Source: Octopus vulgaris (lineage: Eukaryota). From it: a stretch of DNA of 64,000 nt. Location: positions 25,296,001 to 25,360,000 of the forward strand of contig OX597839.1 in NCBI GenBank assembly GCA_951406725.2, given 5' to 3'. The position numbers and the translations under genes are program-made. This document shows, piece after piece, positions 18,820 through 61,677 of this stretch (positions within the stretch are counted from its first letter, which is position 1; every line of letters starts with the position of its first letter). A model generated the notes under the pieces. That model was not told where the DNA came from and searched no databases. It saw nothing but the letters and a program-made list of their open reading frames with translations.

Positions 18820-18873
18820 TTAAAATCTTGATCAGGATTTCCTAATTTCCTAACACAAATATCTCAGGCTTAA

Positions 18874-27371: not shown

Positions 27372-27450
27372 GTGAGTACCTGCACTAGTTCTTACATTAT
27401 ACATCATCAGGTATGAGACAAGTCTATATTGGCTTAATGGTGCTCGCTTC

Positions 27451-30880: not shown

Positions 30881-31122
30881 GTAAGTGACCATGTTTAACT
30901 CTTCTGCTAACGAGGGGTCCCCCCGCCCTTTTTTTTTTTTTTTTTTGCTTTTAACCCTTTAGCATTTAATCCAGCTGTATCCGGCCCAAATATTCTGTTT
31001 TATGTTAAAAGTGACCAGATCCAGCCTCTCACACCTACCTTACAATGTCAGTTCTAAGAACTTACAAACACACCATTGAAATCTTGAAGCCACAAAATAA
31101 TGCAGGATTATTTCAGAATAAT

Positions 31123-32081: not shown

Positions 32082-32117
<36 letters not shown>

Positions 32118-32249
32118 TAAATTAGAGATAAAACCACTATTAGGCAAATCAAACAATGAAAAACTTAAGCCAATACATAAAATTAATTAATTTATATTAT
32201 TTTAAATATATATCAAAAGTATTAAAAGTTTAATAAAAGATAATGAGTA

Positions 32250-32324
32250 AAACACTACGATCGTTTCATGGCTGTCCAATTCGTAATAATTCGAGTTATG
32301 GTTACAGTCAATCTTCAGGTAATT
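32250..32324 (-). ncRNA. Minimal hammerhead-ribozyme-like motif
   Basis: Minus strand: AATTAC-CTGAAGA-tTGACTGT...ACAGCCAt-GAAAC-GATC-GTA-GTGTTT. Confidence 0.6.
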
Positions 32325-32680
32325 GAAATATTTATCTTATATATATATGTATATATAGATATATATATTTTTTACTTAATAATAATAGTAAATAATTTCT
32401 TCAATGGTTTTTCAAAAAACCAACAATTATTTACTGGTAGATTTCGGTATGTAAATATAACGATTAGCGGCAGGAACTTCTGTGAAGTTCAGTATATATT
32501 GTATATAAGTAGAAGGGGCAGGCAACAGGTTGCTTAGCCGCATACTGAAAGAATTAGAAATAGCAGTCGGGGACTGTTTATTTCTATTTTCTACAAGTGG
32601 GGCTCCACATACGACATAACCCTGCAATTCCCATATGCAAAACCGAAGGATTAACTAACGAAAACAAAGCCTAACCGTTA

Positions 32681-32743
32681 ATAGCGAACGAGTTTCTAGA
32701 TTAGAAATATGAAAATATATCTCATGTCTTTCGTCAGCGCCAT
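32681..32743 (-). ncRNA. Minimal hammerhead-ribozyme-like motif
   Basis: Minus strand: ATGGCG-CTGACGA-helix II-GAAAC-TC-GTT-CGCTAT; 6-bp helix I. Confidence 0.6.
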
Positions 32744-33196
32744 CTTCCATAGATTTATCATATTCTTTTAGATGTTTCAACCCCAAGGCTGTGTTTTACA
32801 TGTTTCAATCCACGCACACACACATGCACATGATGATCTACCGAGTTCATTCACAAGGCTTTGGTCAGCCTGAGTCTATAGTAGACTCAGATGTCACGCA
32901 GTGGGACTGAACTCGGAACCGTGTGGTTGAGAAGCAGACTTCTTAACACATGGCCATACCTGCACCTATGATGATAATTGTTTTTTTATATAAAGTTATG
33001 CCAGGTGTCAGACTAAGCATCACTGCTGCTCATACATTTGACTCCCCTGTTTTTGAGGGATAGAGTAGCAGAAGGGGGGTCTTGTTATCAAAATATTTGC
33101 TAGTTTCTAAATTACATGTGTTAACACTCACAGACACACACACACATTTGTTGACTACAAATGAAGATTTAAGTTCATGCAGAGACACATATATAC

Positions 33197-33841
33197 ATCA
33201 TCATCATCATTTAACGTCCGTTCTCCATGCTAGCATGGGTTGGACGGTTCAACTGGGGTCTGGGAAGCTAGAAGGCTGCACCAGGCCCAGTCTGATCTGG
33301 CAGTGTTTCTACAGCTGGATGCCCTTCCTAACGCCAACCACTCCGTGAGTGTAGTGGGTGCTTTTTACGTCCCACCGGCACAGGTGCCAGAGGAGGCTGG
33401 CAAACGGCCACGATCGGATGGTGCTTTTTACGTGCCACCGGCATGGGGACCAGACGAAGCTGGCAACGTTCGGATGGTTCTCTTACGTGCCACCGGCACT
33501 GGTATCACAGCTACAAATTCCATTGATGTTGATAGATTACGATTTTGATTTTCACTTGCCTCAACAGGTCTTCACAAGTGGAGTTTTGTGTCCCTAGAAG
33601 GAAAGGAATGCATAAGTGGGCTGGCTACATCCCAGGTGTAGGCCACGGGATTATGGCCTCACTTGTCCTGCCGGGTCTTCTCACGCACAGCATACTTCCA
33701 TAGGTCTCGGTCTCTAGTCATTTCCTCGGTGGGACCTAAAGTTTGAAGGTCGTGCTTCACCACCTCATCCTAGGTTTTCCTGGGTCTACCTCTTCCACAG
33801 GTTCCCTCAACCGCTAGGGTGTGGCACTTTTTCACACAGCT
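33197..33841 (-). mobile_element. RTE-clade LINE 3' end, second family: ORF end plus long 3'UTR with (ATG)n tail
   Basis: Minus strand reads SCVKKCHTLAVEGTCGRGRPRKT*DEVVKHDL...DRDLWKYAVREKTRQDK*, then the abundant GGATGCCCTTCCTAACGCCAACC repeat. UTR-only copies at 7172-7345, 22041-22415, 24491-24975, 29660-29942, 34140-34510, 37320-37490, 49170-49685. Confidence 0.82.
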
Positions 33842-34633
33842 ACCTTACAAATGCTTGAAAAGAAACTGCTAACTTCAGATGTGTACACACACACACACAC
33901 ACACGCGCACTTGTTGCCATGTGTATTTCCTGATCATAAAACCAGCTCTGGGGCCACACGTAATGCTGATCATGTGGACATGTATACACTCATTGCCTCT
34001 TGGGCCATGTATAATCGGCTGATCCTAGAACCAGCTCTAGCAGCGCTCATACTTGCTGATCTTGGGGTCACACATACACATTCTCTCTCTCTATAATCTA
34101 TCTTCATATTACATATGTGAAGTGCTATACAGATGTGGTTAAGCGAACCATCCGATCGTGGTCGTTGCCGGCGCCGCCCCGTCTGGCCTCCGTGCCAGTG
34201 GGACGTAAAAGCACCATCCGTTCATGTCCGCTGCCAGCCTCGCCTGGCCCCCATGCCGGTGGCACGTAAAAGCACCATCCGTTCGTGGCCGTTTGCTAGC
34301 TCCGTCTGGCACCTGTGCGGGTGGCACGTAAAAAGCACCCACTACACTCATGGAGTGGTTGGCGTTAGGAAGGGCATCCAGCCATAGAAACACTGCCAGA
34401 TCAGACTGGGCCTGGTGCAGCCTTCCGGCTTCACAGACCACGGTCGAACCGTCCAACCCATGCTAGCATGGAGAACGGACGCTAAATGGTGACGATGATG
34501 ATGATGATGATGTTTGTACAACTTGTAAAATATTATCTTTGAAAACCGTTGCTTTTCGTAGATAATAACAAGTTCAAACTACCTGGATATATAATCTTGC
34601 ATTGACTATATACACCTTATGTATGTACTATTC

Positions 34634-35200
34634 CTCTTTTACTTGTTTCAGTCATTTGACTGTGGCCATGCTGGAGCACCACCTTTAGTCGAGCAAATCG
34701 ACCCCAGGACATTCTTTTGTAAGCCTAGTACTTATTCTATCGGTCTCTTTCGCCGAACCGCTAAGTTACGGGGACATAAGCACACCAGCATCGGTTGTCA
34801 AGCGATGTTGGGGGGACAAACACAGACACACAAACATACACACATATACATACATATACATATATACGACGGGCTTCTTTCAGTTTCCGTCTACCTAATC
34901 CACTCACAAGGCTTTGGTTGGCCCGAGACTATAGTAGAAGACACTTGCCTAAGGTGCCACGTAGTGGGGCTGAACCCTGAACCATCAGCATCGGTTGTCA
35001 AGCAATGTTGGGGGGACAAACACATACATACATATACATATATACGACGGGCTTCTTTCAGTTTCCGTCTACCAAATCCACTCACAAGGCTTTGGTCGGC
35101 CCGAGACTATAGTAGAAGACACTTGCCCAAGGTGCCACGTAGTGGGGCTGAACCCTGAACCATGTGGGCGGTAAGCAAGCTACTTACCACACAGCCACTC
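34634..35200 (-). mobile_element. SINE family A with internal tandem duplication
   Basis: CAGCATCGGTTG...GAACCCTGAACCAT segment present twice. Confidence 0.88.
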
Positions 35201-35669
35201 ATATACGTTATATAAGCATTACAATGCTCATTAGTTCTGCTGATTTTTCTATAAGAAGGCTAAAATATTATTACATGATTAACAATCTGAATAAGCAAGC
35301 ACAGCATTGGAAAGAATAATCCGAATGCTTTTAAACTGGCCATAACCAGCCCGAAATTTTGGGGGCGGGGGCAGTTGATTAGATCGACCCCAGTAAGCAA
35401 CAGGTACTTAATTTATCGACCCCGATAAGGATAAAAGGCAAAGTCAACCTCGGTGGAATTTGAACTCAGAATGTAAAGAGAGGCGAAATACCGTATTTCG
35501 TCCAGTGTGCTAACGATTCTGCCAGCTCGCCACTTTAAACCAGTTCAAACATTCTATGCATTTTATGCTCGAACTGGTCAGATCCAGCCTCTCACACCTA
35601 CCCTACAATGTCATTCTAAAAATAAAAAAATCACATCATCAAAATCTCAAAGTAAGATAATCCATAATT

Positions 35670-35840
35670 AGGTGCAGGAGTGGCTGTGTGGTAAGTAGCT
35701 TGCTTACCAACCACATGGTTCCGGGTTCAGTCCCACTGCGTGACATCTTGGGCAAGTGTCTTCTACTATAGCCCCGGGCCGACCAAAGTCTTGTGAGTGG
35801 ATTTGGTAGACGGAAACTGAAAGAAGCCTGTCATATATAA

Positions 35841-35879
<39 letters not shown>

Positions 35880-36077
35880 TGTGTGTTTGTCCCCACCAAC
35901 ATCGCTTGACAACCGATGCTGGTGTGTTTACGTCCCCGTTGCTTAGCGGTTCGGCAAAAGAGACCGATAGAATGAGTACTGGGCTTACAAAAGAATAAGT
36001 CCCGGGGTCGATTTACCCGACCAAAGGCGGTGCTCCAGCATGGCCATAGTCAAATGACTGAAACAAGTAAAAGAGTA
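35670..36077 (+). mobile_element. SINE family A
   Basis: Full copy inside a fragmented MITE. Confidence 0.9.
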
Positions 36078-36282
36078 AGTAATCTGAATGCTAAAGGATT
36101 AAGACAGTATTTTTAAACCATTTCACTTTCATTAAGCACAGCAATTTGTCCTTCTCCTTCTTTTGCAACCCAAACTGGCCCCTCTGGGATGATCTCTCCC
36201 CCCCACCTATATCAAATATCCCCTCAATGCAGTGTCTGGTTTTTGTTTAATCACACATCTTTTATTTGTTCTATTTCTCTAG

Positions 36283-36349
36283 ATACTCTTCCAGTTCCTA
36301 AATCTCCTCTAGCCCCTGACCAGACTATTATGGTATCTACAAACCACAG
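36283..36349 (+). CDS. ksr: KSR exon E: (N)TLPVPKSPLAPDQTIMVSTNH(R), includes first His of C1
   Basis: ctctag acceptor, gtaagg donor, phase 1-2. Resembles KSR NTLSVPRWSP...IKHRF. Confidence 0.9.
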
Positions 36350-36388
36350 GTAAGGAAGGACTTCATTCACTTACATTTTATGTTTTTA

Positions 36389-37323
36389 TGCTGGTGTCAC
36401 ATAAAAAGCACCCGTGCTGGTGCCACGTGAAAAACACCTGTGCTGGTTCCACGTGAAAAACACCTGTGCTGGTGTCACATAAAAAGCACCCGTGCTGGTG
36501 CCACGTGAAAAACACCTGTGCTGGTTCCACGTGAAAAACACCTGTGCTGGTGTCACATAAAAAGCACCCATCCTGGTGCCACGTGAAAAACACTTGTGCT
36601 GGTGCCACGTAAAAAGCACCCATCCTGGTGCCACGTGAAAAACACCCATGCTGGTGCCACATAAAATGCACCCTGTGCTGGTGCCACGTGAAAAACACCT
36701 GTGCTGGTGTCACATAAAAACACCTGTCCTGGTGCCACGTGAAAAACACTTGTGCTGGTGCCACGTAAAAAGCACCCATCCTGGTGCCACGTGAAAAACA
36801 CCCGTGCTGGTGCCACGTAAAAAGCACCCATGCTGGTGCCACGTGAAAAACACCTGTGCTGGTGTCACATAAAAAACACCCGTGCTGGTGCCACGTGAAA
36901 AACACCTGTGCTGGACCCACGTGAAAAACACCTGTGCTGGTGCCACGTGAAAAACACCTGTGCTGGTGCCACGTGAAAAACACCTGTGCTGGTGCCACGT
37001 GAAAAACACCTGTGCTGGTGCCACGTGAAAAACACCCGTGCTGGTTCCACGTGAAAAACACCTGTGCTGGTGTCACATAAAAAACACCTGTGCTGGTTCC
37101 ACGTGAAAAACACCCGTACTGGTGCCACGTAAAAAGCGCCCATGCTGGTGCCACGTGAAAAACACCTGTGCTGGTGCCACGTGAAAAACACCTGTGCTGG
37201 TGTCACATAAAAAGCACCCGTGCTGGTGCCACGTGAAAAACACCCATCCTGGTGCCACGTGAAAAACACCTGTGCTGGTGTCACATAAAAAGTGCTTGTG
37301 CAGGTCCCACGTGAAAAGCACCC
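36389..37323. repeat. 26-bp minisatellite, about 36 units (GTGCTGGTGCCACGTGAAAAACACCT)
   Basis: Direct reading; runs into an RTE 3'UTR-type repeat. Confidence 0.95.
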
Positions 37324-37629
37324 AGTCCAGTACACTCTGTAATGTGGTTGGGTTTAGATAGGGCGTTCGGCCATAGAAGCCATGCCAAAACAGACAATTG
37401 GGGCCAGGTGCAGCCCTCTGGCTCACCTAGTTCCTCCTATCAAACCATCCAACCTATGCCAGTATGGAATACTAATGTTAAATGATGATATGTTGATTGG
37501 TTGATATAGGCATGTCTGATGGGGTGGGGATTGAATGCTTGTATGTACTTTGTAGCTATGTATTTTTATGTATTTTGATTTTGTCTGTTACCATGACAAC
37601 TAATTCCCAAAGGTTGAAGTCACCTACTT

Positions 37630-38340
37630 ATAATAATAATAATAATAATAATGAAATTATTGTATACAGTGCTCAGGTGCACCACAACTTGTCAGAGTAT
37701 ATGCAGTAATGTAGAAATGTCTGGGAAGTGAACAGTGTATGAGTCAGATACATGCCTGTGTGTGTATGGAGGGGAGAAAATCAGGTGTAGTGTTGGCGAA
37801 TCTCAGGAAGCATGGAAGTTTTGAAGGATGCAGTGCTCCGACAACCAACAACTGATGCCGGCAGTTTGTTCCATGCTTCAGCAACTCTCAGCGTAAAAAA
37901 ATGTTTCCTGAAGTCATGGGAGCTGTGCTGTTTTCTGACTTTGTAAACATGTCCACGGGTGTTAGACAGACGGACTCAGGAAGCATGGAAGTTTTGAAGG
38001 ATGCAGTGCTCCGACAACTAACAACCGATGCCAGCAGTTTGTTCCATGCTTCAGCAACTCTCAGCGTGAAAAAATGTTTCCTTAAGTCATGGGAGCTGTG
38101 CTGTTTTCTGACTTTGTAAACATGTCCACAGGTGTTAGACAGACGGACTCAGGAAGCATGGAAGTTTTGAAGGATGCAGTGCTCTGACAACCAACAACTG
38201 ATGCCGGCAGTTTGTTCCATGCTTCAGCAACTCTCAGCGTGAAAAAATGTTTCCTAAAGTCATGGGAGCTGTGCTGTTTCCTGACTTTGTAAATATGTCC
38301 ACGGGTGTTAGATGGGTGGAGTTTGAAAAGGTACTTCGAA
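37630..38340 (-). mobile_element. CR1/L2-type LINE 3' end with 173-bp triplication, (TTA)n tail
   Basis: TRGH.YK...RKHFFTLRVAEAWNKLP; unit starts at 37802, 37975, 38148. Confidence 0.85.
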
Positions 38341-38839
38341 GCAGGTACCTCAGCAGCGTATAGTGCAGTCCTTTCAAACAGTGGCACCACTGTAAAACTG
38401 ACGGGTGTTTCTTAAGCTTGCTCTGCTAGGTCCAGCGATCTCTCTTCCCCTTGGAAACTTCATTCTCCAGAAGCAGGACGGTTGTCTTGTTATGCCTCCT
38501 TTCACTTGTTTCGGTCATTAGTTTGTGGCCATGCTGGGGCACTGCCTTGAAGAATTTTAATCTTAACGAATCAACCTCGGTACTCTCTTTTACTATAGCA
38601 GAAGACACTTGCCCGAGATGCCACGCAGTGGGACTGAACCTGGAACCTTGTGGTTGGTATGCAAGCTATTTACCACACAGCCACTCCTGCGCCTATTTTT
38701 TATTACTTTATTTAGTACTTTATTTTTTTTTTTTTCAACCTGGTACTTTTTCAATCAGTCTCTTTTGTCGAACCACTAAGTTAATGGAATGTAACTCAAC
38801 AATTTTCAAGTGGTGTTGGGGGACAAATACAGACACAGG

Positions 38840-38885
<46 letters not shown>

Positions 38886-39279
38886 CTGCTCTCTGTTTAT
38901 GTACTTCATTTCCTGTACTTCAGTTCTGGTTGTCGAGGGCAGGAAATGTGATCTGAAGTAGACTGATAGCCTATCCAGGTTGAGATTTTATCTATCATCC
39001 GCTTCTGCTGTGGAACTAGATATCTAAGCTTCAGCTCCTAAAGGTCCCCTCAGATCTATGGAGATATTTTTCCGGTTATTTTTGTTTGTTTATTGCCTCC
39101 ATGTTCATCCTTTGCTCTGGTTTGAATCTGTGGACATGCAATAGATATTTTGATTTTTGCTGTGGTTGTATAGTAATAAATTCATTGTTGTTATTATTAT
39201 TATTATTATTATTATATAGATTTGTGCACCCTCCTCCTCCTCCTCTTCCACCAACATCTCTGTTTGTTCACTTACTTAC

Positions 39280-39885
39280 GCACACACACACTCGCTCACT
39301 CACTCACTCACACTCGCTCACACACACACACTCTCGATCGCTCACACATTTGCTCACACATACATATTTGCTCACACACACACATTCACTCACTCACATT
39401 CGCTCACTCACTCATACACACATACTTGCTCACTCACACGTACACACACACACACTTGTTCACTCTCTCACACACATTCACTCACTCACACGCATTCGCT
39501 CACACACACACACACACACACTTGCTCACTCACTCACACACACTCTCGTTCACTCTACACACACATTCACTCAGTCACACACATTCGCTCACTCACACAC
39601 TCACTCATACATGCGCACACACACACATGCTCATTCACACACACACACACACGCTCATTCTCACTCTCACACACACTCATTCATACACACACACATGCTC
39701 ATTCACACACTCACTCACACACATTCACTCACATATTCACACACACTCTCGCTCACTCTACACACACACTCGCTCACTCACACACACTCGCTCACTCATA
39801 CACACACACTCGCTCACTTACACACACACACATGCTCACTCACACACACATTCACTCACATATTCACACACACACATACACACAC
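39280..39885. repeat. (CA/CACT)n degenerate microsatellite
   Basis: Direct reading. Confidence 0.92.
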
Positions 39886-40226
39886 CCCTACCTCTCTCTC
39901 TCAACTTGAAGGATGCCTTACCAATCCAGCTAGCGCCATACCAGCAGTGAAAAACACGTGTTAGAATGTCGAAAACTGTTGCCAAAAACTGCTGCCGTTT
40001 CCTTGGCATTTGCTCAACTATTTCTCATTCATTCTAGAGTTAGATTGTAGCTACAGTTATGGTTAGTAGGCTTCACCCTTCCTTTTCTCTTCCACATCCA
40101 AACCATGGCATGGACTGGCTTTAGCAGTCTCCTCTATTTACCAAACATTTTCTGACCACTCACCAATCCTTAAAATCAGCAACAATTCCGTGTGATGGGT
40201 TTTGTTTGTTTTTTTCTGTGTTTACC

Positions 40227-40852
40227 TCTATCTATCTATCTATCCGCTCAGTCAAAGTCGACTCTCAGTCACTCGATGGATCAGAGTCCTCCAATCAGTT
40301 CTATCCTGGGCCGCTTCTTTCAGATTGGCTATGTCCATTCCGGTATCACTCTTGATGGTGTCAAGCCAGCGGGTTCTTGGTCGGCCTCTTCCTCTCTTGC
40401 CACTGACCATTCCGAGCATGATGTCCTTCTCCAGGGATTTTCTCCGCATAATATGACCAAAATATATATATACTATATCTATCTGTCTGTCTATCTATCT
40501 ATCTATCTATCTATCTATCCGCTCAGTCGATGTCGACTCTCGGTCACTCAATGGATCAGTGTCCTCCAGTCAGTTCTATCCTGGGCCGCTTCTTTCAGAT
40601 AGGCTATGTCCATTCCGGTATCACTCTTGATGGTGTCAAGCCAGCGGGTTCTTGGTCGGCCTCTTCCTCTCTTGCCACTGACCATTCCGAGCATGATGTC
40701 CTTCTCCAGGGATTTTCTCTGCATAATATGACCGAAATATACCAATCTATGCTTGGTGATCCTAGCTTCTAGCGACATTTTCGGCCTGATCTGCTTAAGA
40801 ACTTCTCCATTGGTGAGCCTCGCTGTCCATGGAATCCGTAAAAGTCTTCTCT
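40227..40852 (-). mobile_element. RTE/BovB-like LINE 3' end, third family, tandemly duplicated, (GATA)n tails
   Basis: YFGHIMQRKSLEKDIMLGMVSGKRGRGRPRTRWLD...AQDRTDWR; about 215 bp occurs twice. Confidence 0.85.
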
Positions 40853-41381
40853 AAAACCCCCATATTTCATTTCATTTCAGCTGCTGTACTGATGTTAGGT
40901 GTGTTATGTTGCATATTTTTACGTGTGTGTTAGGTTCTTATACATGACATCAGTATCTGCCATCACTAGTACACTGTGCCCCGGTTTGTTATCACAGTCA
41001 ACTAAAGCAATTGACAACAGGATCATAAAACCCTGCAGCTGCATAATCACCAGTGGACCCATGCTGGCAGGGAAATGTAGACGTAAAACTCTTTGTTGGT
41101 GGTGGTGGTGGTCGTCGTCGTTGTAGTGGCAGTGACAAGGAAGCATGGTTGCAGTCACTTTACTCATGTAACTAACGTTCAGGGAAAGGAATGAATGCCA
41201 CCACTTCCGTTTTTCTCCTTACATTGAAATCAGTGGCACTTACCACTCTAATTGCCTAATTACAATCAGTCGAGCAGCAAATACGTTCGGTCGAGTTATT
41301 TTTCACTTAAACACCGCACTTGTTGCTTTGGTCGTGCATAGAAAAGATTCCACACCACAGTTTTCGGTATATATTTTGTTG

Positions 41382-41740
41382 GAGTGGCTGTGTGGTAAGT
41401 AGCTTGCTAACCAACCACATGGTTCCGGGTTCAGTCCCACTGCGTGGCACCTTGGGCAAGTGTCTTCTACTATAGCCCCGGGCTGACCAAAGCCTTGTGA
41501 GTGGATTTGGTAAACGGAAACTGAAAGAAGCCTGTCGTATATATGTATATATATGTGTATGTGTGTGTATATGTTTGTGTGTCTGTGTTTGTCCCTCTAG
41601 CATTGCTTGGTGTGTTTACGCCCCCGTAACCTAGCGGTTCGGCAAAAGAGACCGATAGAATAAGTACTGGGCTTTATAAGTCCCGGGGTCGATTTGCTCG
41701 ACTAAAGGCGGTGCTTTTTGACTGAAACAAGTAAAAAAGT
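41382..41740 (+). mobile_element. SINE family A
   Basis: Consensus match with small deletions. Confidence 0.88.
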
Positions 41741-42391
41741 AAGATGATGGTGGTGGCGAGGCAGGGGTAATGATGATGATGATGCTTGTAGCGAAGGTGA
41801 TGGTGATTGTTGTGGCAGTTCCAAATAGTTCTGACTTGGCAGGGACCGAACCTGCGCTCTTCTCTACCATACGCACGCGCACGCACACAGTGACAAGTCA
41901 GTGTCTAACGATGTTGATAAACAGAAGAAAAAGTTGTATGATGATGGGTCGTCATTAAAACGGAGATGGTTTTGTCAGTTATGGACGATTGGTGGTGGGG
42001 GGTGGGGAGTGGTGGCGACGGCGATGGTAATGGCGATGATGATGATGATGGATGATAGATGATGACGTGTGGTGGTGGTAGTGGTGGTGGTGGTGGCGGC
42101 GGCGGCGTTGACAATGATGGAAATACTGTTGGGACCGTACATCAAATCGCGGCTCTATTTGCCCACTCACACAACAATTGATGATGGCGTGATGACGTCA
42201 AGAAGCATTGATCTGGTGCGTGTGCGTGTGTGTGTGGCGGCGGTGGTGGTTGTTGTGGTGGTGGTGGTGGCGGCGGTGGCGGAGGCGGAGCAGTAGCAGC
42301 AAACAACGGGAGGAGGAGGAGGGTGTACACACAAGCAACACATGTCAGCTGTGTGATTGGAGACTGGCGAAGCTGGCCAATGTGTGTGTGC

Positions 42392-42436
<45 letters not shown>

Positions 42437-43170
42437 CATGTAAGAGTGTGTATGTATGTATGCGTGCGTGTGTGGTAGCCGTCGTCGTCGTGGTAGTCGT
42501 CGGTTTTTTTTTGTTTTTGTTTGTTTTTTTTTTTTGATGTCATCAGCCACAGATCTCTTCTCACCCTCCCAACCCCCAACCCCCACCACCGTTTTCTCCC
42601 CGCTGCCACCATCACCTTCACCACCACCACCGTCCCCCCCCACCACCACAGATCTCTTCTCACCCTCCCAACCCCCAACCCCCACCACCGTTTTCTCCCC
42701 GCTGCCACCATCACCTTCACCACCACCACCGTCCCCCCCACCACCACAGATCTCTTCTCACCCTCCCAACCCCCAACCCCCACCACCGTTTTCTCCCCGC
42801 TGCCACCATCACCTTCACCACCACCGCCGTCCCCGCCACCACCACAGATCTCTTCTCACCCTCCCAATCCCCAACCCCCACCACCGTTTTCTCCCCGCTG
42901 ACACCATCACCTTCACCACCACCACCGTCCCCCCCCCACCACCACAGATCTCTTCTCACCCTCCCAATCCCCCCACCACCACCGTTTTTCTCCCCGCTGC
43001 CACCATCACCTTCACCTTCACCGCTGCCCTCCTCCCCCCATCACCACCACCCTCCTCCACCCAATGACGTCAAAGCCAAGACACATGACAATCGATTTCA
43101 AAGTGATGGCAGGGTCGCGCGCGCGCGTGCGCGGTGGTGGTTCGTTGTCGGGGTGGGGTGGCGGCGGGTA
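41740..43170. promoter_or_regulatory. GC/CpG-rich intronic island, candidate promoter or enhancer
   Basis: TGACGTCA at 42193-42200 and 43065-43072, CCAAT at 43061, (CG)n at about 43116-43127, many CpGs against an AT-rich background. Confidence 0.35.
42547..43030. repeat. ~99-bp C-rich tandem repeat, 5 units
   Basis: AGATCT at 42551, 42650, 42748, 42846, 42946. Confidence 0.92.
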
Positions 43171-43455
43171 CGTTATTACAGAAAAGTTTCGTTAGTTACA
43201 ATGTAGATGCGAGTGTATATATGTGTGTGTAGAGTGCGTTGTGTAAACCGTATTGTCAGCAATACAAAGTAAACTCGTTTGGTTGTAAACAACTTGATCT
43301 GACGATCAACACATGTGTGCTGCTTACTTTGCAAAACAAGAGAAACCGGGTTCAAACCCAGCTGGAGTTTGTGAAATTTATTGCGATGCAACTGTAAATA
43401 CGGCGATTTACTTGTCATTTGATACACAACTTATTTCCCTGGTGTCCATGCGTCA

Positions 43456-43962
43456 TCTATATATATAAAACTGTAGTTGTGTGAGTGTCTGTCCCCTTCG
43501 ATTTAGATTCCTAACTACTCCCACATTTTGCGGTGCAGTTTAACCAAATTCGGGTATCTTATAGTCGTGATTCATATCGAGCCCGTCTGGGTATTAGCGC
43601 GCGTCTACGATGAGTCTACGATTTTAAAAATAATTTAACATCATTTTTTATTCCATTTTAATGCATAATTTTTCGTGTGTCGATGGCGGCGGAGTTGGCG
43701 TCCATGGTCACACCTGCACCTGTTTGCTTCTCCCCCTTCTTCCCTCCCTCGTGAAGCTGTGGGGAAGGGAGTGTAAGGAAATCAACGTCGTAAAGCGTTG
43801 TCAAGGAGACCAGCGTTCTTTTAGAACAACGACTTCATGGCTTGAAGACACCAAAACAAAAATGGCTAAGAAAGCCCGAATTTATAAGGGAAGTAACTCT
43901 CTAAAAATGCTTATATAGTTATTTCCCTTACAAACCCGAGCAACGCCGGGCGATACTGCTAG
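43456..43962 (+). mobile_element. Non-autonomous Helitron-like element
   Basis: A|TCTATATATATAAA...CCCGAGCAACGCCGGGCGATACTGCTAG|T; last ~70 bp shared with the 4077-4441 copy. Confidence 0.82.
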
Positions 43963-44454
43963 TATATGATACACCCTTTTTTTCTAACCATCTAAGTGAC
44001 TTGGACCTTATGAAAGGAAAGGTTTATGTCACTCAAGACATACGAGTAATATAGCTGTATGGCCAACCAAAGCCTTGTGAGTGAATTTGGTAGGTGGAAA
44101 CTGAAAGAAGCCCGTCGTAGATGTGTGTGTGTGTGTGTCGGTGTTTGACCCAAACCATCGCTTGACAACCGATGTCGGTGTGTTTACGTCCCCGTAACAT
44201 AGCGGTTCGGCAAAAGAGACCGACAGAATAAGTACTAAGCTTACAAAAGAATAAGTCCTGGTGGTGCTACAGCGTGGGCGCAATCAAGTAAACGGGCACG
44301 GGTTTCATAAGTTTAGGACAGACAAGGTTTGAGAACAAAAAGGAAGGGCACATTAATTTAATGCTAGTCTTATTAGATTTAATGTCTGAAAGTCAGTTGG
44401 ATGGGCATGGCTGGGTTGGTTTTGATCATAATTCTGTCTTGAGGCTAAACAACA

Positions 44455-44861
44455 CTCTTTTACTTGTTTCAGTCATTTGACTGCGGCCATGCTGGAGCAC
44501 CGCCTTTAGTCGAGCAAATCGACCCTGGGACTTATTCTTTTGTAAGCCCAGTACTCATTCTATCGGTCTCTTTTGCCGAACCGCTAAGTGACGGGGACGT
44601 AAACACACCAGCATCGGTTGTCAAGCAATGCTAGGGAGACAAACACAGACACACAAACACACACACACACACATACATATATATATATACATATATACGA
44701 CAGGCTTCTTTCAGTTTCTGTCTACCAAATCCACTCACAAGGCATTGGTCGGCCCGGGGCTATAGCAGAAGACACTTGACCAAGGTGCCACGCAGTGGGA
44801 CTGAACCCGGAACCATGTGGTCGGTTAGCAAGCTACTTACCACACAGCCACTCCTGCGCCT
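44455..44861 (-). mobile_element. SINE family A
   Basis: Full copy; partial + copy at 44064-44283. Confidence 0.9.
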
Positions 44862-45542
44862 GTTCAAACTGAAAACAGGTGATGTTTTCATAGTGCGAAG
44901 TAGAATGGGTGATCGTTTCTAAGCGGGGTATGAAAAACTGGCACGAGCGTGATAACGCCCGGGGGCGGCCCTTCCGTTTGCTGCCCCCGGACCCTATAAA
45001 AAACTAAAAAAAACACATATTGCCTACAGCAGACCTCAGAGTCCGCCGTCCCGGGGCAGACCCCACCCCACAAGCTACGCTAGTGGAGATACAGGTAAAC
45101 ATCTCCCGTATGAGCAACTTGACCGTCGTTATTCTCAAGACGTGGAATTAGCTAGCAAGTTCAGGGGAGGTAACTGTGTTCGCTTTCAATTACATTCCGC
45201 GATAATTAAAACCAAAATAGAATTAGCAGTGTTGCATAATTGATAACCAAGCATAGTCTCATACAGTCAGTCAGATACTGGGTTCTATCCCTATTTGAGC
45301 CAGTGTCCTTTAATCGCTTTTTTTTTTTTTTTTTTGAGCTCTGGTATTACAGTCGTGTGGTTAGAATACGTGAGGAAAGAATTGTCAGAGTTTACAAGTA
45401 CAATAATCCCTCGCCATATCGCGCTTCACTTATCACGGTTTATTATTTAAGCCGACGTCGATTCCTCCGCAGTGGTGTTTTGCATTTATTATAAAATAAA
45501 TATATACAAATTATAAAAATAATTTTTTTAAATATATACAGT

Positions 45543-45941
45543 AGGCGCAGGAGTGGCTGTGTGGTAAGTAGCTTGCTTACCAACCACATGGTTCCGGGTT
45601 CAGTCCCATTGTGTGGCACCTTGGGCAGATGTCTTCTGCTATAGCCTCGGGCCGACTAAAGCCTTGTGAGTGGATTTGGTAGACGGAAACTGAAAGAAGC
45701 CCGTCGTATATATATATATGTATGTGTGTGTGTGTGTATGTGTTTGTCCCCCTAGCATTGCTTGACAACCGATGCTGGTGCGTTTATGTCCCCGTCACTT
45801 AGCGGTTCAGCAAAAGAGACTGATAGAATAATGACTGGGCTTACAAAAGAATAAGTCCCGGGGTCGAGTTGCTCGACTAAAGGCAGTGCTCCAGCATGGC
45901 CGCAGTCAAATGACTGAAACAAGTAAAAGAGTAAAAGAGTA
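45543..45941 (+). mobile_element. SINE family A
   Basis: Full copy. Confidence 0.9.
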
Positions 45942-46057
45942 GTTTCTACTTCCCCTATTGTGGGGAGTTTTGGAACTTAACACTCGTGATAGTCGAGGGG
46001 TTACTTGTAAATCCAACTAACAAGTGACCTAGGGGTAGACCACATGTTGGTTGGTTA

Positions 46058-46974
46058 ATCTCCATAGCCTCTAAGACAGTGAGCTGGCAGAATTGTTAGC
46101 ACATGAGGCACAAATGCTCATCCTTCTTTACATTCTGGCTTCAAATACTGCCATGGGCCACTTTGCCTTTCATACTTTCGGGGTCAGAGAAGTACCAGCT
46201 GAGCATGGGTTGATGAAATCGGCTTTGCCCCACCCTCCCCCAAACCTGCTGGCCGTGTCCCAAAATTTAGAACCCATCTCCATAGCCTCTAAGGCAGTGA
46301 GCTGGCAGAATTGTTAGCACATGAGGCACAAATGCTCATCCTTCTTTACATTCTGGCTTCAAATACTGCCATGGGCCACTTTGCCTTTCATACTTTCGGG
46401 GTCAGAGAAGTACCAGCTGAGCATGGGTTGATGAAATCGGCTTTGCCCCACCCTCCCCCAAACCTGCTGGCCGTGTCCCAAAATTTAGAACCCATCTCCA
46501 TAGCCTCTAAGGCAGTGAGCTGGCAGAATTGTTAGCACATGAGGCACAAATGCTCATCCTTCTTTACATTCTGGCTTCAAATACTGCCATGGGCCACTTT
46601 GCCTTTCATACTTTCGGGGTCAGAGAAGTACCAGCTGAGCATGGGTTGATGAAATCGGCTTTGCCCCACCCTCCCCCAAACCTGCTGGCCGTGTCCCAAA
46701 ATTTAGAACCCATCTCCATAGCCTCTAAGGCAGTGAGCTGGCAGAATTGTTAGCACATGAGGCACAAATGCTCATCCTTCTTTACATTCTGGCTTCAAAT
46801 ACTGCCATGGGCCACTTTGCCTTTCATACTTTCGGGGTCAGAGAAGTACCAGCTGAGCATGGGTTGATGAAATCGGCTTTGCCCCACCCTCCCCCAAACC
46901 TGCTGGCCGTGTCCCAAAATTTAGAACCCATCTCCATAGCCTCTAAGGCAGGGAGCTGGCAGAATTGTTAGCAC
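46058..46974. repeat. 218-bp tandem array (4.2 units) made from a degenerate SINE family B copy
   Basis: Unit starts at 46058, 46276, 46494, 46712, 46930; contains GAGCTGGCAGAATTGTTAGCAC. Confidence 0.95.
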
Positions 46975-48523
46975 AATGAACAAAAACTCTTACAGGCATT
47001 TTGTCCATCTTTATGTTCTGAGTTCAAATTCTGCCAAGGTTGACTTTGCCTTTCATCCTTTTGGGTCATCCCATAAATAATGCAGTTTTTTTATACTTCT
47101 TTTATTTTTCAAAATTAAGATAAACAAAGTTCTTTTTTAATCTAAAATATACTCTCCTTCATTTTCTACAATGCATGACATTTGTATCTGCCATGACTGC
47201 GATTTTGCTTGGCTTGATGGGTCTTCTCAAGCATAACATAATGCCGAAGGTCTTGGTCATTTCTCCCGTGAGGCCCAATGCTCAAAAGGAACTCAGCCAC
47301 CTCACCTCTGAACATACACACATAACAAGCTTCTTTCAGTTTCTGTCTACCAAATCCACTCACAAAGGCTTCAGTCTGCCTGAGGCTATGGTAGAAGAAA
47401 CTAGTTCAAGGTGCCATGCAGTGGGACTGAACCCGGCACCATGTGGTTGGGAAGCAAGCTTCTTACCACACAACCATGCCTGCCCTATGTATTTTTTCAG
47501 TCAGTGAAGGTGAATCTTTAGTCCTGCAAGTTTTCAAGTGACCCCACAGGTGCTGGTGCCATGAAATATGTGCCCAGTGCACTCTCTAAAGTGGTTGGCA
47601 TTAGGAAGGGCATCCAGCTGTAGAAAGCATTCAAAACATTGCAGCACAGTGAAGTTCTCTGACTCATTGGGTCCCTTCGCACTGTGCAACTTGCGTAATA
47701 TAGAAGACTGACATTGGATGATGATGATGATGATGATGATGATTTAAAACATCAGCTGTTGTGTGTTTAATTTTGAGCTTAAAATAGGTTTATGTAAAAA
47801 AATATCAACAAACTTTGTTGTTGTGTTTTTTCTTTTCTTTTTTTTTTGTTATTTTCTTCCTTTCGCTGTCTTATTGAAAAAAAAAAAGAAAAAGAAAATT
47901 GAAAAAGCTATCTTGCCTGTAATAAAGTTTAGTGCATCATGCTTACATATGTCCATATCTCTAAGGTCATTTTGATTTGCTGGGCCATTGAAATAACTGT
48001 TTCATGTTTGCTGTGTAACATATGGTCAAAGTACACACGTGCCCTCCACTCTCTCTCTCTCTCACACACACTCTTACTCTCTGTATTTCATACTTTTGCT
48101 CTCTCTCTCACTCTTCTGATACTTATCCCAAATCTATAATACAATATCTATTACCATTCGTTTTCCCAATTTCAAATTAACAGTGACAACTGAATACTTA
48201 ACAATAAATATTTCAATACATAAAACACTTCAAACCCCTTCTTGTGGTCCTTGTTACCAAACTGCAGTTAGACCTTGTGTTTATTCACTTGTAAAAAGAT
48301 TAGAATCTGTGGATCCCCCCCCCACCCATCACTACCACTACCAATCCTATTTTCCATTTCTCTTACTCTCCAATGTTAAATCTGTCCAGGGTCGTCACTG
48401 GCTCTGCATTTCATCCCAGCAGTGATCAATAAAGTTAGGACCAATAAACTACAAACGTCCAGTCAACTGATTGGTTCCTGCGCAAATTATGGTTTTGTAC
48501 CTAGCCCCTAAAGAACTAGTGTT

Positions 48524-49025
48524 AGCCTGGTCAGCCTGTAATGACATGCATAAGATCTGGTCATCAAATTTAAGTAGAGACTTCAAACTTGAAATCTTCA
48601 AAGCCACAGTCGAACCAATTCTACTACATGGCTCAGAAACCTGGACGTTATCAAAGAAGCTTGAGAGGCGGTTGGATGGAACCTACACTCGCCTCCATAT
48701 GAGAGCTCAAAATCTCTCGTGGAAGCGCCATCCAACCAAAATACAAATATATGGGAAACTACCACCTGTCATCTCTTGTGAAAGGTAGGAGAGTCCAGTT
48801 TGCTGGACATTGTTGTAGAGCTGAAAAAGAAGTAATTTCTACTCTTCTCCTCTGGAAGCCATCTGCTCGCAATACCAGAGGGCGCACACTCTCCCACCCT
48901 GATGTAATCTCCAGGGATACAGGCATCCAGCAACAGGACCTCCATAATGCTATGATGGACCGTGAAGTCTGGCGTAGCATGGTAAATTCCACTGTCTCGA
49001 CCACGGTCGAACAATGATGATGATG
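48524..49025 (+). mobile_element. Second copy of the same RTE-clade LINE 3' end (frameshifted)
   Basis: ORFs 48471-48788 and 48751-49017 nearly identical to the 17697 peptide. Confidence 0.88.
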
Positions 49026-49361
49026 AGTGTTAGACACACCAGCACCAGTTGTCAGTCAATGTGGGGGGGGGGGGGGTGCAGTGATTGGTGAGAACCTGGG
49101 TATGAAGAAGGGGTGGGGAAAGCAGCAATGCAGGGATGGGGAGTGGGAGATAATCATAGTTGCTTTGTGACCCGGACGGTGCTGGTGCCATGTAAAAAGT
49201 ATCCAGTCCACACTGTGAAGTGGTTGGCATTTGGAAGGGCACCCAGCAGTGAAGACCATGCCAAGACAGACACAGAAGCCTGGTGCAGCCGTCCTGCTTC
49301 CCAGTTCCTGTCAAACCGACCAACCCATGCCAGCATGGAAGGCGGGCGTTAACAATGATGA

Positions 49362-49401
<40 letters not shown>

Positions 49402-49686
49402 TAATCATCATCATCATCATCGTTTAGCGTCCGCTTTCCATGCTGGCATGGGTTGGATGGTTCAACTGGGGTCTGGGAAGCCAAAAGGCTGCACCAGGCC
49501 CAGTCTGATCTGGCAATGTTTCTACGGCTGGATGCCCTTCGTAACGCCAACCACTCCATGAGTGTAGTGGGTGCTTTTTACATGCCACTGGCACAGGTGC
49601 CAGGGGAGGCTGGCAAACGGACATGATCGGATGGTCCTTTTTATGTGCCACTGGCAATGGAGGCAGTCGGGGTGGCGCTGGCAATA

Positions 49687-49719
<33 letters not shown>

Positions 49720-49722
<3 letters not shown>

Positions 49723-49937
49723 ATTACTATTATGCAAAAGTGTCGCAAGTCCAAAGCGTTGCTTTTTCAGAAAATAAAAAAATAGTTTCACCATTCCATA
49801 GAAAAACCATTGTACTATTTTTAACAATTTTTGATATCTTGGCATCTGAAGCAGCTGGAGATAGGATTGTTCGACCGAAAGAACTGGCTATTGCTAGCAA
49901 ATTTGGACATACAACAGTTTAACGTAATAGCAACGAG
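49720..49937. mobile_element. TA-flanked TIR element; longer relative at about 31684-32087
   Basis: Imperfect 15-bp TIR CTCRTTRCTATTAYG; internal blocks (TATGCAAAAGTGTC, CTTGGCATCTGAAGCAGCTGGAGATA) shared between copies. Confidence 0.7.
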
Positions 49938-49939
49938 AT

Positions 49940-50934
49940 ATATATATATATATATACACACATACATACAATGGGCTGCTTTTAGTTTCCATCTACCAAA
50001 TCCACTCACAAGGCTTTGGTTGGTGTGAGGCTATGGTAGAAGATAAATACCCACGGTGCCACGCAGTAGGACTGAACCCAGAATCATGTGGTTGGGAAGC
50101 AAACTTCTTAACCCACAGCCACACCTGCACCTATTCTTTTGTTTGTTTGTCATTTGACTGTGGCCCCTGCTTATAAACAAACAAATCGACCCCAAGACTT
50201 ATTCTTTGTAAGCCTAGTACTTATTCTAGGAATCTTTGGCCAAATCGCTAAGTTACTGGGACGTAAACACATCATCGGTTGTCAAGCGACATGTACATAT
50301 ATATACATATATATGATAGGCTTCTTTCAGTTTCCGTCTACCAAATCCACTCACAAGGCTTTGGTCGGCCCAGGGCTATCGTAGAAGACACTTTCCCAAG
50401 GTGCCACGCAGTGGGACTGAACCTGGAACCATGTAGTTGGTAAGCAAGCTACTTAACACGCAGCCACTCCGGCACCCCTATGTATATATATGACGGGCTT
50501 CTTTCAGTTTCCGTCTACCAAATTCACTCACAAGGCTTTGGTTGGCTCGAGGCTATAGTAGAAGCCGCTTGCCAAAGGTACCATGCAGTGGGACTGAACC
50601 TGGAACCATATGGTTGGTAAGCAAGTAACTTACCACATACCTACTCCCATGCCTATATCACAGAAGTTTCAGACGTAGCAATATTTTATACTTGTGAACA
50701 GGTTACAGTTTCGAGTAATGGCAATTATGACAAACCATTTTACAAAAAGATGTTTAAGTGAAGTAAAGAGTTGCAGGAGTGGCTGTCTGGTAAGTAGCTT
50801 GCTTACCAACCACATGGTTCTGGGTTCAGTCTCACTGTGTGGCACCTTGTGCTATCGTCTTCTACTAAAGCCTTGGGCCGACCAAAGCCTTGTGAGTGGA
50901 TTTGGTAGACGGAAACTGAAAGAAGCCCGTCGTA

Positions 50935-50976
<42 letters not shown>

Positions 50977-51297
50977 TTTGTGTGTCTGTGTTTGTCCCTC
51001 TAGCATTGCTCGACAACCGATGCTGGTGTGTTTATGTCCCCGTCACTTAGCGGTTCGGCAAAAGAGACCGATAGAATAAGTACTGGGCTTACAAGAGAAT
51101 AAGTCCCGGGGTTGAGTTGCTCGACTAAAGGCGGTGCTCCAGCATGGCCGCAGTCAAATGACTGAAACAAGTAAAAGAGCAAAGGGAAAGGCTTGCTAAG
51201 AATAAGTCCTGGGGTCGAGTTGCTCGACTAAAGGCGGTGCTCCAGCATGGCCGCAGTCAAATGACTGAAACAAGTAAAAGAGTAAAAGGGTAAAGAG
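49940..51297. mobile_element. SINE family A cluster: three - strand heads (49940-50652) and one + copy with duplicated tail (50772-51297)
   Basis: Consensus matches; ends about 90 bp before exon F. Confidence 0.85.
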
Positions 51298-51385
51298 AGT
51301 CTTTGTGTGTTTCTGAATGACAAAGCTTACTGTCTTCCACACCGGAATTGCTTTTAATCCCATGCTTTCCTTTAATCCATTTCAG

Positions 51386-51466
51386 ATTTATCATTAAACC
51401 TATGTTTGAGATCTGTGATTATTGTGGGAAGCATGTTTTATTTGGAAAAATATGTAAAGATTGTAG
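51386..51466 (+). CDS. ksr: KSR exon F, C1 domain first part: FIIKPMFEICDYCGKHVLFGKICKDC
   Basis: tttcag acceptor, gtaagt donor, phase 2-2. CxxC-x9-CxxC spacing of the atypical Raf/KSR C1 domain. Confidence 0.93.
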
Positions 51467-52344
51467 GTAAGTGCCGCATGTTTTCTTCTCTCCTTCTCTT
51501 CGATAAGTTCTGTGCCGCAAACAAGTTGGTTCGTCTCTCCCCTGGGTTGTGCCACAAACTACTGCAAGTCACCACACCTGCCTCATACTGAACTGTCGCA
51601 AATTATTGCTCAATGAGCCTGTCGCAAACGGTGTCACATGCCGTTGATTAGTCATCTTTGTATCGTGCTGTCACAAACTATGTCGATATGTAACTGGCAA
51701 TCTGTGTAGTTATGACAATCGGTTTTTCCGGTCCCAGTTGATCCCGTCATCGGAACAGCCTGCTCCTGAAATTAACGTGCACGTGATTGAGTATTCCACA
51801 GATAAATCTACGCTTAATGTATTTCTCGGGGACATTCAGCGTGACACAGAATGTGACAAGGCTGGCCCCTGTGAATAACACGTACAGTTGATTTTTGCCA
51901 GCTGAGGGGACTGGAGCAACGTGAAATAAAGTGTCTTGCTCAAGGACACAACACACCACCAGTATTTGAACTCATGACCTTATGCTCATGATCCAAATAC
52001 TCCTAACCACAAAGCGACCTGCCTTCATACTCTCTTTCTTTCTCTCTTACTATATATATATAGAGAGAGAGATGTGGAGGAGCAATGGCCCAGTGGTTTG
52101 GGCAGCAGACTCGCGGTCATAGGATCGTGGTTTCGATTCCCAGACCAGGTGTTATGAGTGTTTATTGAGCGAAAAACACCTAAAAGCTCCATGAGGCTCC
52201 GGCAGGATGTCTCTCAATATGTAGGAGCCAACTAACTACATTTTACATTTGTGGGGCCGTAGCTGATTTATAAAGGAAAGAAGAAACAGTAACTTTTTTA
52301 AATGTTTTGTCTGTCGGTTCATGTTATGTGTTTATTATTTCCAG

Positions 52345-52409
52345 GTATAAATGTCATCGCGATTGTGCCAATAGAGCTCCCAATACCTGCAGCCTTCGTT
52401 TAAAGTATG
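52345..52409 (+). CDS. ksr: KSR exon G, C1 domain second part: [21 protein letters not shown]
   Basis: ttccag acceptor, gtgagt donor, phase 2-1; completes H-x2-C-x7-C. Confidence 0.93.
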
Positions 52410-59292: not shown

Positions 59293-59923
59293 ACATGTTA
59301 AACTATGTTAAGTGTTAAAGAAAGAAATCTTGCTGGTTTAGCAAAACATTTTCATAGGGGCCTTAAAATACCACCATGGCTCCCCCAGTTTACTATTTTC
59401 CTTGCATGGGCCACCTTGGTTAAGAACTGCTGACCTACGTAAGACTTTGTCACTAGTTTCTCCTCTCGGTAGATGTGATTTTGAAATGTAATATTAAAAG
59501 CTAACCAAAAACTCAGGGATTACAGTTCAGACAACATCGTTAGAATAATTTGTTTGTTTAAATATTTCACCTTTGACCTTCTCCCTCCACCCCGCCCCGC
59601 CCCCCAATTGTCTTCGACGGTTTTTCATTTTGCAATCATAATTTGTTGTTGTTGTTGTTGTTGTTATATTTGTCTTGTGGTTTTCTCTATGGCGTGTTCT
59701 GTATCAGAAATCAGTTCGTTGTTGTCTGTCTGTTTGTTGTTGTAATTTCATGGCAGAAAACTTTTAAAAAAAAAAACAAAAAAAAAAAGAAGGAAAGAAA
59801 GAAACCTGAAACCAATTTGTTGTTGTTTTTGTTTTTTGATCTGGGTTTAATGCCATTCTTTTGTTTCCTGACCCCTAATGTCAAGTAATGTTTCCTCACT
59901 CCTCTGTATATCTATTTTTCTAG

Positions 59924-60136
59924 GTTCTCCCAAAAACACTCGGCGAAGCATTATAAAGCTGGTGAAGTCTGTTCCTACACTCCAACGCCAGGATTCAGGC
60001 TCCAACACATCGTCTTGTAACTCATCCACCCCATCTTCTCCTGCTCTCCCCATCACTTCCCCTGCCAGCATCACTTCTCCCTCTCCGGCTGCCTCCCCGA
60101 AGGTTGTGCCCTTACCATCTCAGTTTCCGTTCCCAG
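59924..60136 (+). CDS. ksr: KSR exon H, CA4 region: ...QDSGSNTSSCNSSTPSSPA...SQFPFP (FxFP ERK docking motif)
   Basis: ttctag acceptor, CAG|gtgagg donor, phase 1-1. DSxSNxSSxxSSTPSSPA and FxFP are KSR CA4 hallmarks. Confidence 0.9.
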
Positions 60137-61005
60137 GTGAGGACCATTATCCCGTGTCTTGCTCAACACCTACTGAACCTGCTTTCTTTGATGTTTTTTG
60201 TAGTCAGTCTGCTTATCCGTTAAACATGAATGCTAACCACCCTGCTAACCATCTAAGTGGTAAGGCCCTGCCAAATCTGAGTGCCGTCAACAAACCCTCA
60301 AGACATGGCTCCTTCCATCACTTTGGTCGGGCCTCACCGTCCTCATCACCAGTTTGCAGCACAAAGAAATCTAATTTTCACAATGTTCATTTTAAACGTG
60401 TTCCTCTTGAAAGCATCCCGTTACCATCGAGATGTGCTTGTCAGCATGTGTACGAACATGAACGAAAGCTTGGCCTCTATACGTACCCCTGTTTGAACCT
60501 AGGTTCCGCTGAATGTGTGCATTGTAGATCTATTTCGACTTTATGTTTTCCATGCTTTTCCACATCCTCTGACAAACCATGCAAACACAAGGACCACAAG
60601 GACTTCCATGCCAGCCAAGGTTTGCGTAATTGTGCCGACAAGTTGTTGCTCTCCGACCAATCTCACTCAGGTCAGTTAAAGAAAAGAGTGACGGGCATTC
60701 CGGCTGTGGCCCCGGCCGCATTGTCGCATCTCCTGCAGACTAAAGGCCCCATGCAGTCGCCTCTGGTAGCCATGTCCAAACTTCTGCCATCGTTGTCATC
60801 ATCGTCGTCATCGGAATATTCTGGTGTCAATGAACAGGTACCACATTGGCAATACACCAACTCAGGTAATCAGTTGACTCTACAACACATGCTAAGGGTG
60901 CAATTTGGTTGGCATGACGGCCGGTTCAAATTTAACTTGGCAGTTTTTAAATTTTTCTTTTCGACTTTTTTTCTTTCCTCTCGCTCTTTTGCAAATGTGG
61001 GTTAA
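60137..61005 (+). CDS. Possible alternative in-frame extension of exon H (alternative donors after 60670 or 60865, or terminal exon to TAA at 61003-61005)
   Basis: Stop-free for 289 codons past the donor in non-repetitive sequence. Two downstream CAG|GT donors are in the same phase (1) as 60136. Confidence 0.55.
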
Positions 61006-61677
61006 AAAAAAAAAAAAAAACACTTGATGTTGGGTGAACGTATTTCATATCAGGGCAAACGCACACTTGGTATACGGGGAACATACTTGCTATCAGTGAA
61101 TGTACTCTTGTCATTGGATGAACACACACTTCATATTGGGGTGAACGCATTCTTGCGATTGGGTGAATACGCAATTATTGGTAACGGGTAAACCTACTTT
61201 CAGCTTTCTTTTTACTTTTCTCTCTCTCTAATTACTTTAAGTCGTCTTCACCTTCTCTGTCTCCCTTATGCTCTCTCCTTCCTCTTCTCTCTCACTCTCT
61301 CCACTATGTATTGTGTATACTAATACATCCTTCTACCTTACTTTAGCAGCAATCTTTAATAAATATGTATGTATATATATATATATATATTAATAAATAA
61401 AACATGCATATATATATATATATATATATATTAATAAATCAAACATATGCATATATATATATATACATATATGTACGTACCTACCTCTACATGTATATAT
61501 ACACGCATATATGAGTACAGGACACCAAAAAAACATCGAACATAATGAGAAACGAAAACATAGACACAAACCCTAGGAACTGGACATTTTTTTTTAAACA
61601 ACAAAAAAATAGAGTACAGGACAATTAACACAAAGAAAAAAACCCTTCTTCAGTCGCCATGGTTTCATCTACTCTAC

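Follow-up and report, generated by a model that had tools for sequence, protein, structure and literature searches.

An octopus KSR gene with two splice donors at its FxFP exon: a real and selected, probably coleoid-wide, 243-codon extension ahead of the kinase domain

The KSR gene and the open frame after its FxFP exon

The window, by which we mean the whole 64,000-nucleotide stretch of Octopus vulgaris DNA analyzed here (contig OX597839.1, positions 25,296,001 to 25,360,000 of the forward strand), carries part of a gene for KSR (kinase suppressor of Ras), a scaffold protein in Ras-ERK growth signaling. The exons in the window and in the next 26 kb reproduce residues 55-941 of the Octopus KSR2-like protein P0007 in 19 exact-match blocks, and they continue to ~89820 (window numbering) in the order typical of KSR, that is, the C1 domain of CA3, CA4 with its FxFP motif, and a C-terminal kinase domain. 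The O. sinensis protein P0001 has the Pfam domains SAM_KSR1_N, SAM_KSR1, C1_1 and kinase (E 2.5e-50 for the last); the two SAM_KSR1 families, which represent the CA1 or CC-SAM region of KSR, exceed their cut-offs and C1_1 falls slightly below its curated cut-off (E 2.2e-5). P0001 was mapped to the window from residue 54 onward, and no counterpart of its residues 1-54 was found within the window. The KSR exons up to and including CA4 are as follows.

18360..52409, forward strand: upstream KSR coding exons in seven blocks (part of CC-SAM, the proline-rich CA2, and C1/CA3), exact peptides of P0007 residues 55-492
59924..60136, forward strand: CA4 exon, 71 codons in 213 nt, both boundaries in phase 1, preceded by AG at 59922-59923 and ending in FPFP (FxFP, ERK docking)

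The next KSR exon lies 9 kb downstream of 60136, with its acceptor beyond the window at 69158 in window numbering (L002:5158). Within the CA2 exon, 26734-27371 encodes a long Gly/Ser low-complexity region with small indels relative to P0001. Several intron frames (17697-18287, 38082-38411, 40548-40850, 48471-49017, and 57238-57627) resemble C-terminal remnants of reverse transcriptases, which we take to be of LINE type. Neither P0008 (isoform X2 of O. sinensis) nor P0010 contains any of the 71-codon FxFP exon, and from these two predicted proteins it seems that there may be a third form in which the exon is skipped and FxFP is lost, perhaps a conserved one.

A preliminary description of this DNA had noted that the reading frame stays open for 289 codons past 60136 and that two further donors share the phase of the first, and both statements proved accurate. 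The frame 59872-61005 is free of stops up to the TAA at 61003-61005, and CAG|GTGAGG (60136), CAG|GTCAGT (60670), and CAG|GTAATC (60865) are all in phase 1, the latter two adding 178 and 243 codons, respectively. The elements concerned are listed here, with donor scores calculated on the gene's own donor profile.

60137..60865, forward strand: in-frame extension of 729 nt (243 codons), included with the distal donor according to X21 and X8 junctions, P0009, pN/pS, and P0149/P0150
60668..60676, forward strand: consensus-like in-phase donor 60670, score 7.2, use not seen
60863..60871, forward strand: distal donor 60865, used, weak (score 0.7, vs 7.15 for 60136)

Across 60137-61005 each of the remaining five frames contains 11-21 stops, and none of 3000 dinucleotide shuffles kept the frame open (mean 9.5 stops). 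As a within-gene control, read-through was followed from the other 17 mapped donors; it extended for 0-52 codons in 16 of them and for 244 codons in one, after a kinase-exon donor, where the sequence is a simple CA/CT repeat (L003:3939-4670, ~77939-78670 in window numbering). The read-through stretch after 60136 is single-copy in the genome (G000), as the description of it as unique sequence had implied. A match of the Cys-rich part of the insert to another locus (L024:1501-1761, G000:C4:119484621-119484881) was set aside as probably due to chance, having an E value of 0.02, 29% identity and two stops.

Use of the two splice donors

RNA evidence was drawn from eight of the 24 listed runs, aligned over 59801-61600. 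Runs X1, X2, X6, and X12 represent organism A, with 0-1 differences per kb from the window, and runs X8, X21, X22, and X23 represent organism B, a second, related octopus species that is ~2% divergent from it. X21 is a raw RNA run, and the contig runs (X1, X2, X6, X8, and X12) were presumed by guess to be RNA. Splicing of the CA4 exon onto its upstream neighbor was seen in X1, X6, X8, X12, and X23, and splicing from 60136 onto the exon that follows in X6 and X22. A high-copy repeat at 61481-61600, to which numerous reads and contigs align in most of the runs, has no bearing on the isoform.

The two donors were found to join one and the same acceptor. In X22, three reads pass from 60136 into the next exon, and insert depth is zero beyond the 60101-60160 bin; in X21, four reads leave at 60865 and enter the first 30 letters of that same exon (L002:5158 onward) with two differences, these small junction counts coming from the ~6/100 of each raw run that was read. 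The X8 contig runs gap-free, with 19 differences, from the upstream exon through 59923..60865 to the next exon, with the reservation that a contig may combine several molecules. Among the four X8 records examined, the long form was the sole contig path across the CA4 exon. Both donors are thus used in organism B, on the strength of the X22 reads at 60136 and the X21 reads and X8 contig at 60865. The suggestion that alternative 5' splicing inserts a large module was therefore upheld for the +243 form, for which the P0009 junction, purifying selection and the end point of P0150 (see below) also speak.

In organism A, the 60136 splice was present in X6 at a depth of 9.94, with insert contigs at 2.4-2.5, and the exon was covered to 60136 in X12 at a depth of 7.6, with an insert piece at 3.7. 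The X1 contig, spliced upstream, passes 60865 unspliced and reaches 60992, and the X2 contig is unspliced from 59874 to 60941, upstream intron included. The 60865 junction was seen in none of these four runs, the closest to the window, and the insert was covered in all four; we consider it highly probable that the junction also occurs in the window's own species. In X23, much of the insert was covered up to the 60821-60880 bin, with zero depth afterwards. The differences between samples, which come to 3-7 reads, incline us toward the view that donor choice is regulated, and the weak score of 60865 fits both regulated use and slow splicing.

The third donor, 60670, has the best score of the three, yet it was not seen in use in any of the eight runs, and the contigs of X1, X8, X2, X6, and X12 cross it unbroken; the proposed +178 form therefore found no counterpart in these data. 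Organism B carries an A>G change at position -2 of this donor.

Selection on the insert and conservation of its end point

The protein sequence of the insert is under purifying selection. Of the 18 differences between X8 and the window across 60139-60864, 10 are synonymous and the other 8 non-synonymous, a pN/pS of 0.24-0.37 (p 0.003-0.03 over kappa values of 1-8). The bias is stronger over 60139-60669, the first 177 insert codons (7 synonymous and 2 non-synonymous, p 0.0006-0.006), and clear selection is absent from the last 65 codons, which appear near-neutral (3 synonymous and 6 non-synonymous).

Searches of proteins for the insert by size found no insert-only homolog among 307 candidates of 133-424 aa, and six proteins of 630-2000 aa, none of which covered the insert. 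P0009 (O. bimaculoides, UniRef100_A0A0L8HAC8), at 592 aa, lies between these limits. It begins at insert residue 30, is identical to the insert at 205 of 213 residues, and crosses the 60865 junction straight into the kinase exons; it shares all eight residue changes of X8 and may derive from the same data, hence the two are perhaps dependent. A search of 1.84 billion representatives returned two matches to the insert, P0149 and P0150. P0149 has 95% identity in one half of the insert and 92% in the other.

P0150 (E 1.5e-23) consists of an FQFP exon and 231 read-through residues ending in G-N-Q, as would result from translation through donor 60865, and from this ending its donor would be placed at the equivalent position. 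Its similarity to the octopus sequence extends to the donor, a result that none of 2000 shuffles matched, and is absent past it, where for the tail 1311 of 2000 shuffles matched, with 17 of the last 65 insert codons identical. In the FxFP part, P0150 is identical to Octopus at 47 of 58 residues, against 52 for Argonauta vs Octopus and 31-34 for other molluscs vs Octopus, and because this distance falls between those of Argonauta and the other molluscs we infer that P0150 is likely from a coleoid outside the Octopus-Argonauta group. Argonauta is itself represented by the short-form protein P0002 alone, and a scan of JGI metagenomes for the DNA of P0150 gave 144 pattern matches, none confirmed. 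The strongest conservation falls in the following core.

60445..60588, forward strand: conserved core, insert residues 103-150, rich in Cys/His and aromatic residues, 36 of 48 identical in P0150 (75%) and 46 of 48 in P0149

Taken with the junctions, these data indicate that the long-exon isoform of KSR is real and selected, and is probably coleoid-wide. That the insert is translated seems to us very likely, given pN/pS and its conservation in a distant sequence. A functionless product of leaky splicing, or an open frame due to chance, could account for the weak distal donor, the low read counts, and the near-neutral last 65 codons. It accords poorly, however, with the shuffles, the synonymous bias, the core and the end point that P0150 preserves, and the long form being the only path across the exon in the X8 records; selection and the P0150 conservation largely refute it, and we give it scarcely any credence.

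It is also conceivable that the insert is part of a short transcript of its own, starting inside the exon, with an N-truncated protein of insert and kinase initiated at an internal Met. P0009 has just this form in starting at insert residue 30, and N-terminally truncated KSR2 is described for mouse and human (PMC4050188). The X8 contig, however, ties the upstream exon through the entire insert to the next exon, P0149 and P0150 show a similar open frame that begins at the proximal donor, and P0150 has no Met at the position where P0009 starts; this explanation we regard as very improbable.

A further alternative is that the gene deliberately makes a kinase-less KSR of 851 aa, ending at the TAA at 61003 with a hydrophobic tail by intronic polyadenylation, which would act as a dominant-negative or membrane-anchored scaffold. 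The features in question, noted in outline in the preliminary account and confirmed, are a TAA at 61003-61005, a run of 17 A at 61004-61020, and AATAAA starting at 61358, 61392, and 61433.

60866..61020, forward strand: start of the intron, with 46 open T-rich codons, TAA and the genomic A17, likely an internal-priming site
61358..61438, forward strand: three AATAAA amid TA repeats, at zero depth in 8/8 runs, although 61353-61488 was skipped as repeat

Such a form would agree with the weakness of donor 60865, the AATAAA motifs downstream of the TAA, the X1 contig spliced upstream and extending to 60992, the X2 contigs extending to 60941, and frames that remain open past 60865 in the window (46 codons), P0149 and P0150 (longer), each with a Phe-rich tail. 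Against this, the X1 contig stops ~10 letters beyond 60992 at the A17, the pattern of internal oligo-dT priming, and ends at genomic A-runs are discarded as internal priming in 3'-end studies (PMC6821429). X2 keeps the upstream intron (from 59874), as would pre-mRNA or DNA, and shares one study with X1. An open run of 46 codons in T-rich DNA has a chance of ~0.1. The P0149 tail has an insertion, its stop is not at the window's position, and it has only 36 of 46 identities (78%), compared with 92-99% in the sequence upstream; in P0150 the tail shows no relationship. Depth was zero over 61001-61480 in all eight runs, a weak negative because the repeats 60993-61029 and 61353-61488 were skipped in alignment. 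Ends lying 15-30 nt past a signal and off the A-run were not found, this too being a weak test as contigs do not show true ends. The proposal of a kinase-less isoform thus did not hold up in the runs examined, and we consider it unlikely.

Possible workings of the long form and its place among KSR proteins

Our preferred reading, which we hold with reasonable confidence, is that the CA4 exon has two working donors, of which 60865 adds 243 aa and leaves the kinase that follows intact, and that the added segment is likely translated and likely serves as a regulatory arm, largely unfolded, with predicted roles in ERK docking and feedback. When the distal donor is chosen, 243 aa would be placed in frame between FxFP and the kinase domain as a flexible, poorly folded arm that may hold the kinase at a greater distance from the membrane anchor formed by C1, YTYP would offer a predicted second DEF-like docking site for ERK on the arm, and motifs resembling phosphorylation sites may add feedback control. 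The motifs concerned are as follows.

60301..60372, forward strand: RHGS, SSPV, and KKS, candidate basophilic and proline-directed phosphorylation sites plus the first residues of a candidate D-motif-like stretch, kept in 4/4 sequences
60478..60489, forward strand: YTYP, candidate second DEF-type (aromatic-x-aromatic-Pro) motif, present in the window, P0009, P0149, and P0150

RS[IV]STL and LCFPCF are likewise kept in all four sequences. In YTYP, which is conserved, the first and third positions are aromatic and the fourth is Pro, and Tyr is accepted at both aromatic positions of DEF sites. When the insert was shuffled 20000 times, a motif of this type arose by chance in 1887 cases (~9%). The usual distance from a DEF docking site to its target Ser/Thr-Pro is 6-20 residues; YTYP lies ~44 residues downstream of the nearest conserved Ser-Pro, within the Cys-rich core that could be folded. 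Active ERK binds the FxFP of CA4, and feedback phosphorylation is supported by this site (PMC12566612, PMC10605237); for DEF sites, a preference for aromatic residues at the first and third positions is described (PMC6514807). It is because of the conserved motifs, the lack of a confident fold, this docking role of the CA4 FxFP, and the aromatic preference of DEF sites that we propose an arm with a second DEF-like site and phosphorylation sites, distancing the kinase from C1. The proposal is tentative, and the assignment of YTYP as an ERK-docking motif, made from its sequence, is equally so.

The insert had no match in Pfam, PDB sequences or the ESM Atlas, and its AlphaFold models (pLDDT 33.6 and 34.6) were not good enough to be searched for similar folds, although such low values obtained from 1-4 sequences are not proof of disorder. 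The same splicing model would also accommodate a core that is a small folded module, possibly zinc-binding or lipid-modified, an interpretation that bears only on the functional part. The core of P0150 is 75% conserved, almost level with its FxFP exon part (47/58), and H103, C126, H128, C136, C139, C148, and H150 (insert numbering) are kept in 4/4 sequences; on the other hand, C99, C101, C118, C129, H153, and C165 are not kept, and the missing database matches and the lack of a confident fold also argue against it. We regard a folded or zinc-binding core as doubtful, and nearly as likely as the flexible ERK-docking arm. A zinc finger of B-box, ZZ or UBR type was considered and rejected; such a finger would have a conserved set of seven or eight Cys/His ligands, and the B-box-like pattern fails because its ligands are not kept, P0150 showing the loss of C118, C129, H153, and others, and Pfam and PDB gave none at E values up to 10.

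More speculatively than for the arm itself, one may imagine a three-way KSR switch in coleoids, in which the skip, short, and long forms would have 0, 1, and 2 DEF sites, the long form carrying a coleoid-specific 243-aa module recruited from an intron, and in which the choice, made by tissue and possibly in neurons, would retune Ras-ERK feedback. Alternative splicing in octopus is reported to peak in neural tissue and to be otherwise ordinary (PMC9699675). The term KSR does not occur in the main text and three supplement files of that paper, but the isoform may be included in data file S1, its long-read annotation.

The insert of B-KSR1, a mammalian variant, is short, about 14 aa. Similar to the octopus long form, B-KSR1, the brain variant of mammalian KSR1, is a splice variant with a lengthened CA4 region (PMC4050188, PMC5778607). 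The octopus insert differs in its length of 243 aa, its origin from an alternative donor, and its matching only three cephalopod-like proteins. Other known variants change KSR domain content by removal, whereas the octopus form adds to it: T-KSR2 lacks CA1-CA2, a C. elegans ksr-2 variant has a shorter CA4, and hKSR2-deltaCA1 also belongs here (PMC4050188, PMC5778607). A precedent for the kinase-less reading is provided by the Raf family, but a supported kinase-less transcript was not found in the octopus runs examined. DA-Raf1 has no kinase domain. This protein is a dominant-negative splice isoform of A-Raf (PMC2064279).

P0001, P0002, P0007, and further KSR2-like proteins annotated in Octopus, in Argonauta, and elsewhere among invertebrates have the same CC-SAM, C1, FxFP, and kinase with a shorter spacing, and P0009 shares the insert and its junction, but is without CA1-CA4 and is named merely a serine/threonine kinase. 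The long form is thus partly present in that model, which is not recognized as an alternative KSR isoform, and our literature search, judged by titles and the starts of abstracts, found no paper on a cephalopod KSR isoform. The degree of surprise is limited, because an alternative donor is an ordinary mechanism and KSR variants in CA4 length are already known. The long form nevertheless corrects gene models, provides a dated example of a large coding gain at the 3' end of an exon that has been kept under selection, and, with isoforms of differing ERK-docking content, offers a simple test of how a scaffold affects signaling in animals with large nervous systems.

What makes a conserved 243-aa insert at this position unusual is that the distance between FxFP and kinase is held so closely across the invertebrate KSR proteins examined. 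Among 148 proteins, a set made up of the best 120 of 234 matches plus cluster members, near-duplicates included, it ranged from 50 to 117 aa with a median of 76 in 142; in the other six (P0008, P0009, P0010, P0027, P0084, and P0142) one of the two marks, FxFP or kinase, was missing. No full-length long form occurred among these 148. In the octopus long form the spacing would be 317 aa, and the predicted KSR lengths are 941 aa for the short form and 1184 aa for the long. Two proteins in other molluscs depart from the usual arrangement at the FxFP-exon junction: P0005 (Elysia chlorotica) has an FNFP unit repeated three times, and P0006 (Solemya velum) has a G-E read-through past FQYP.
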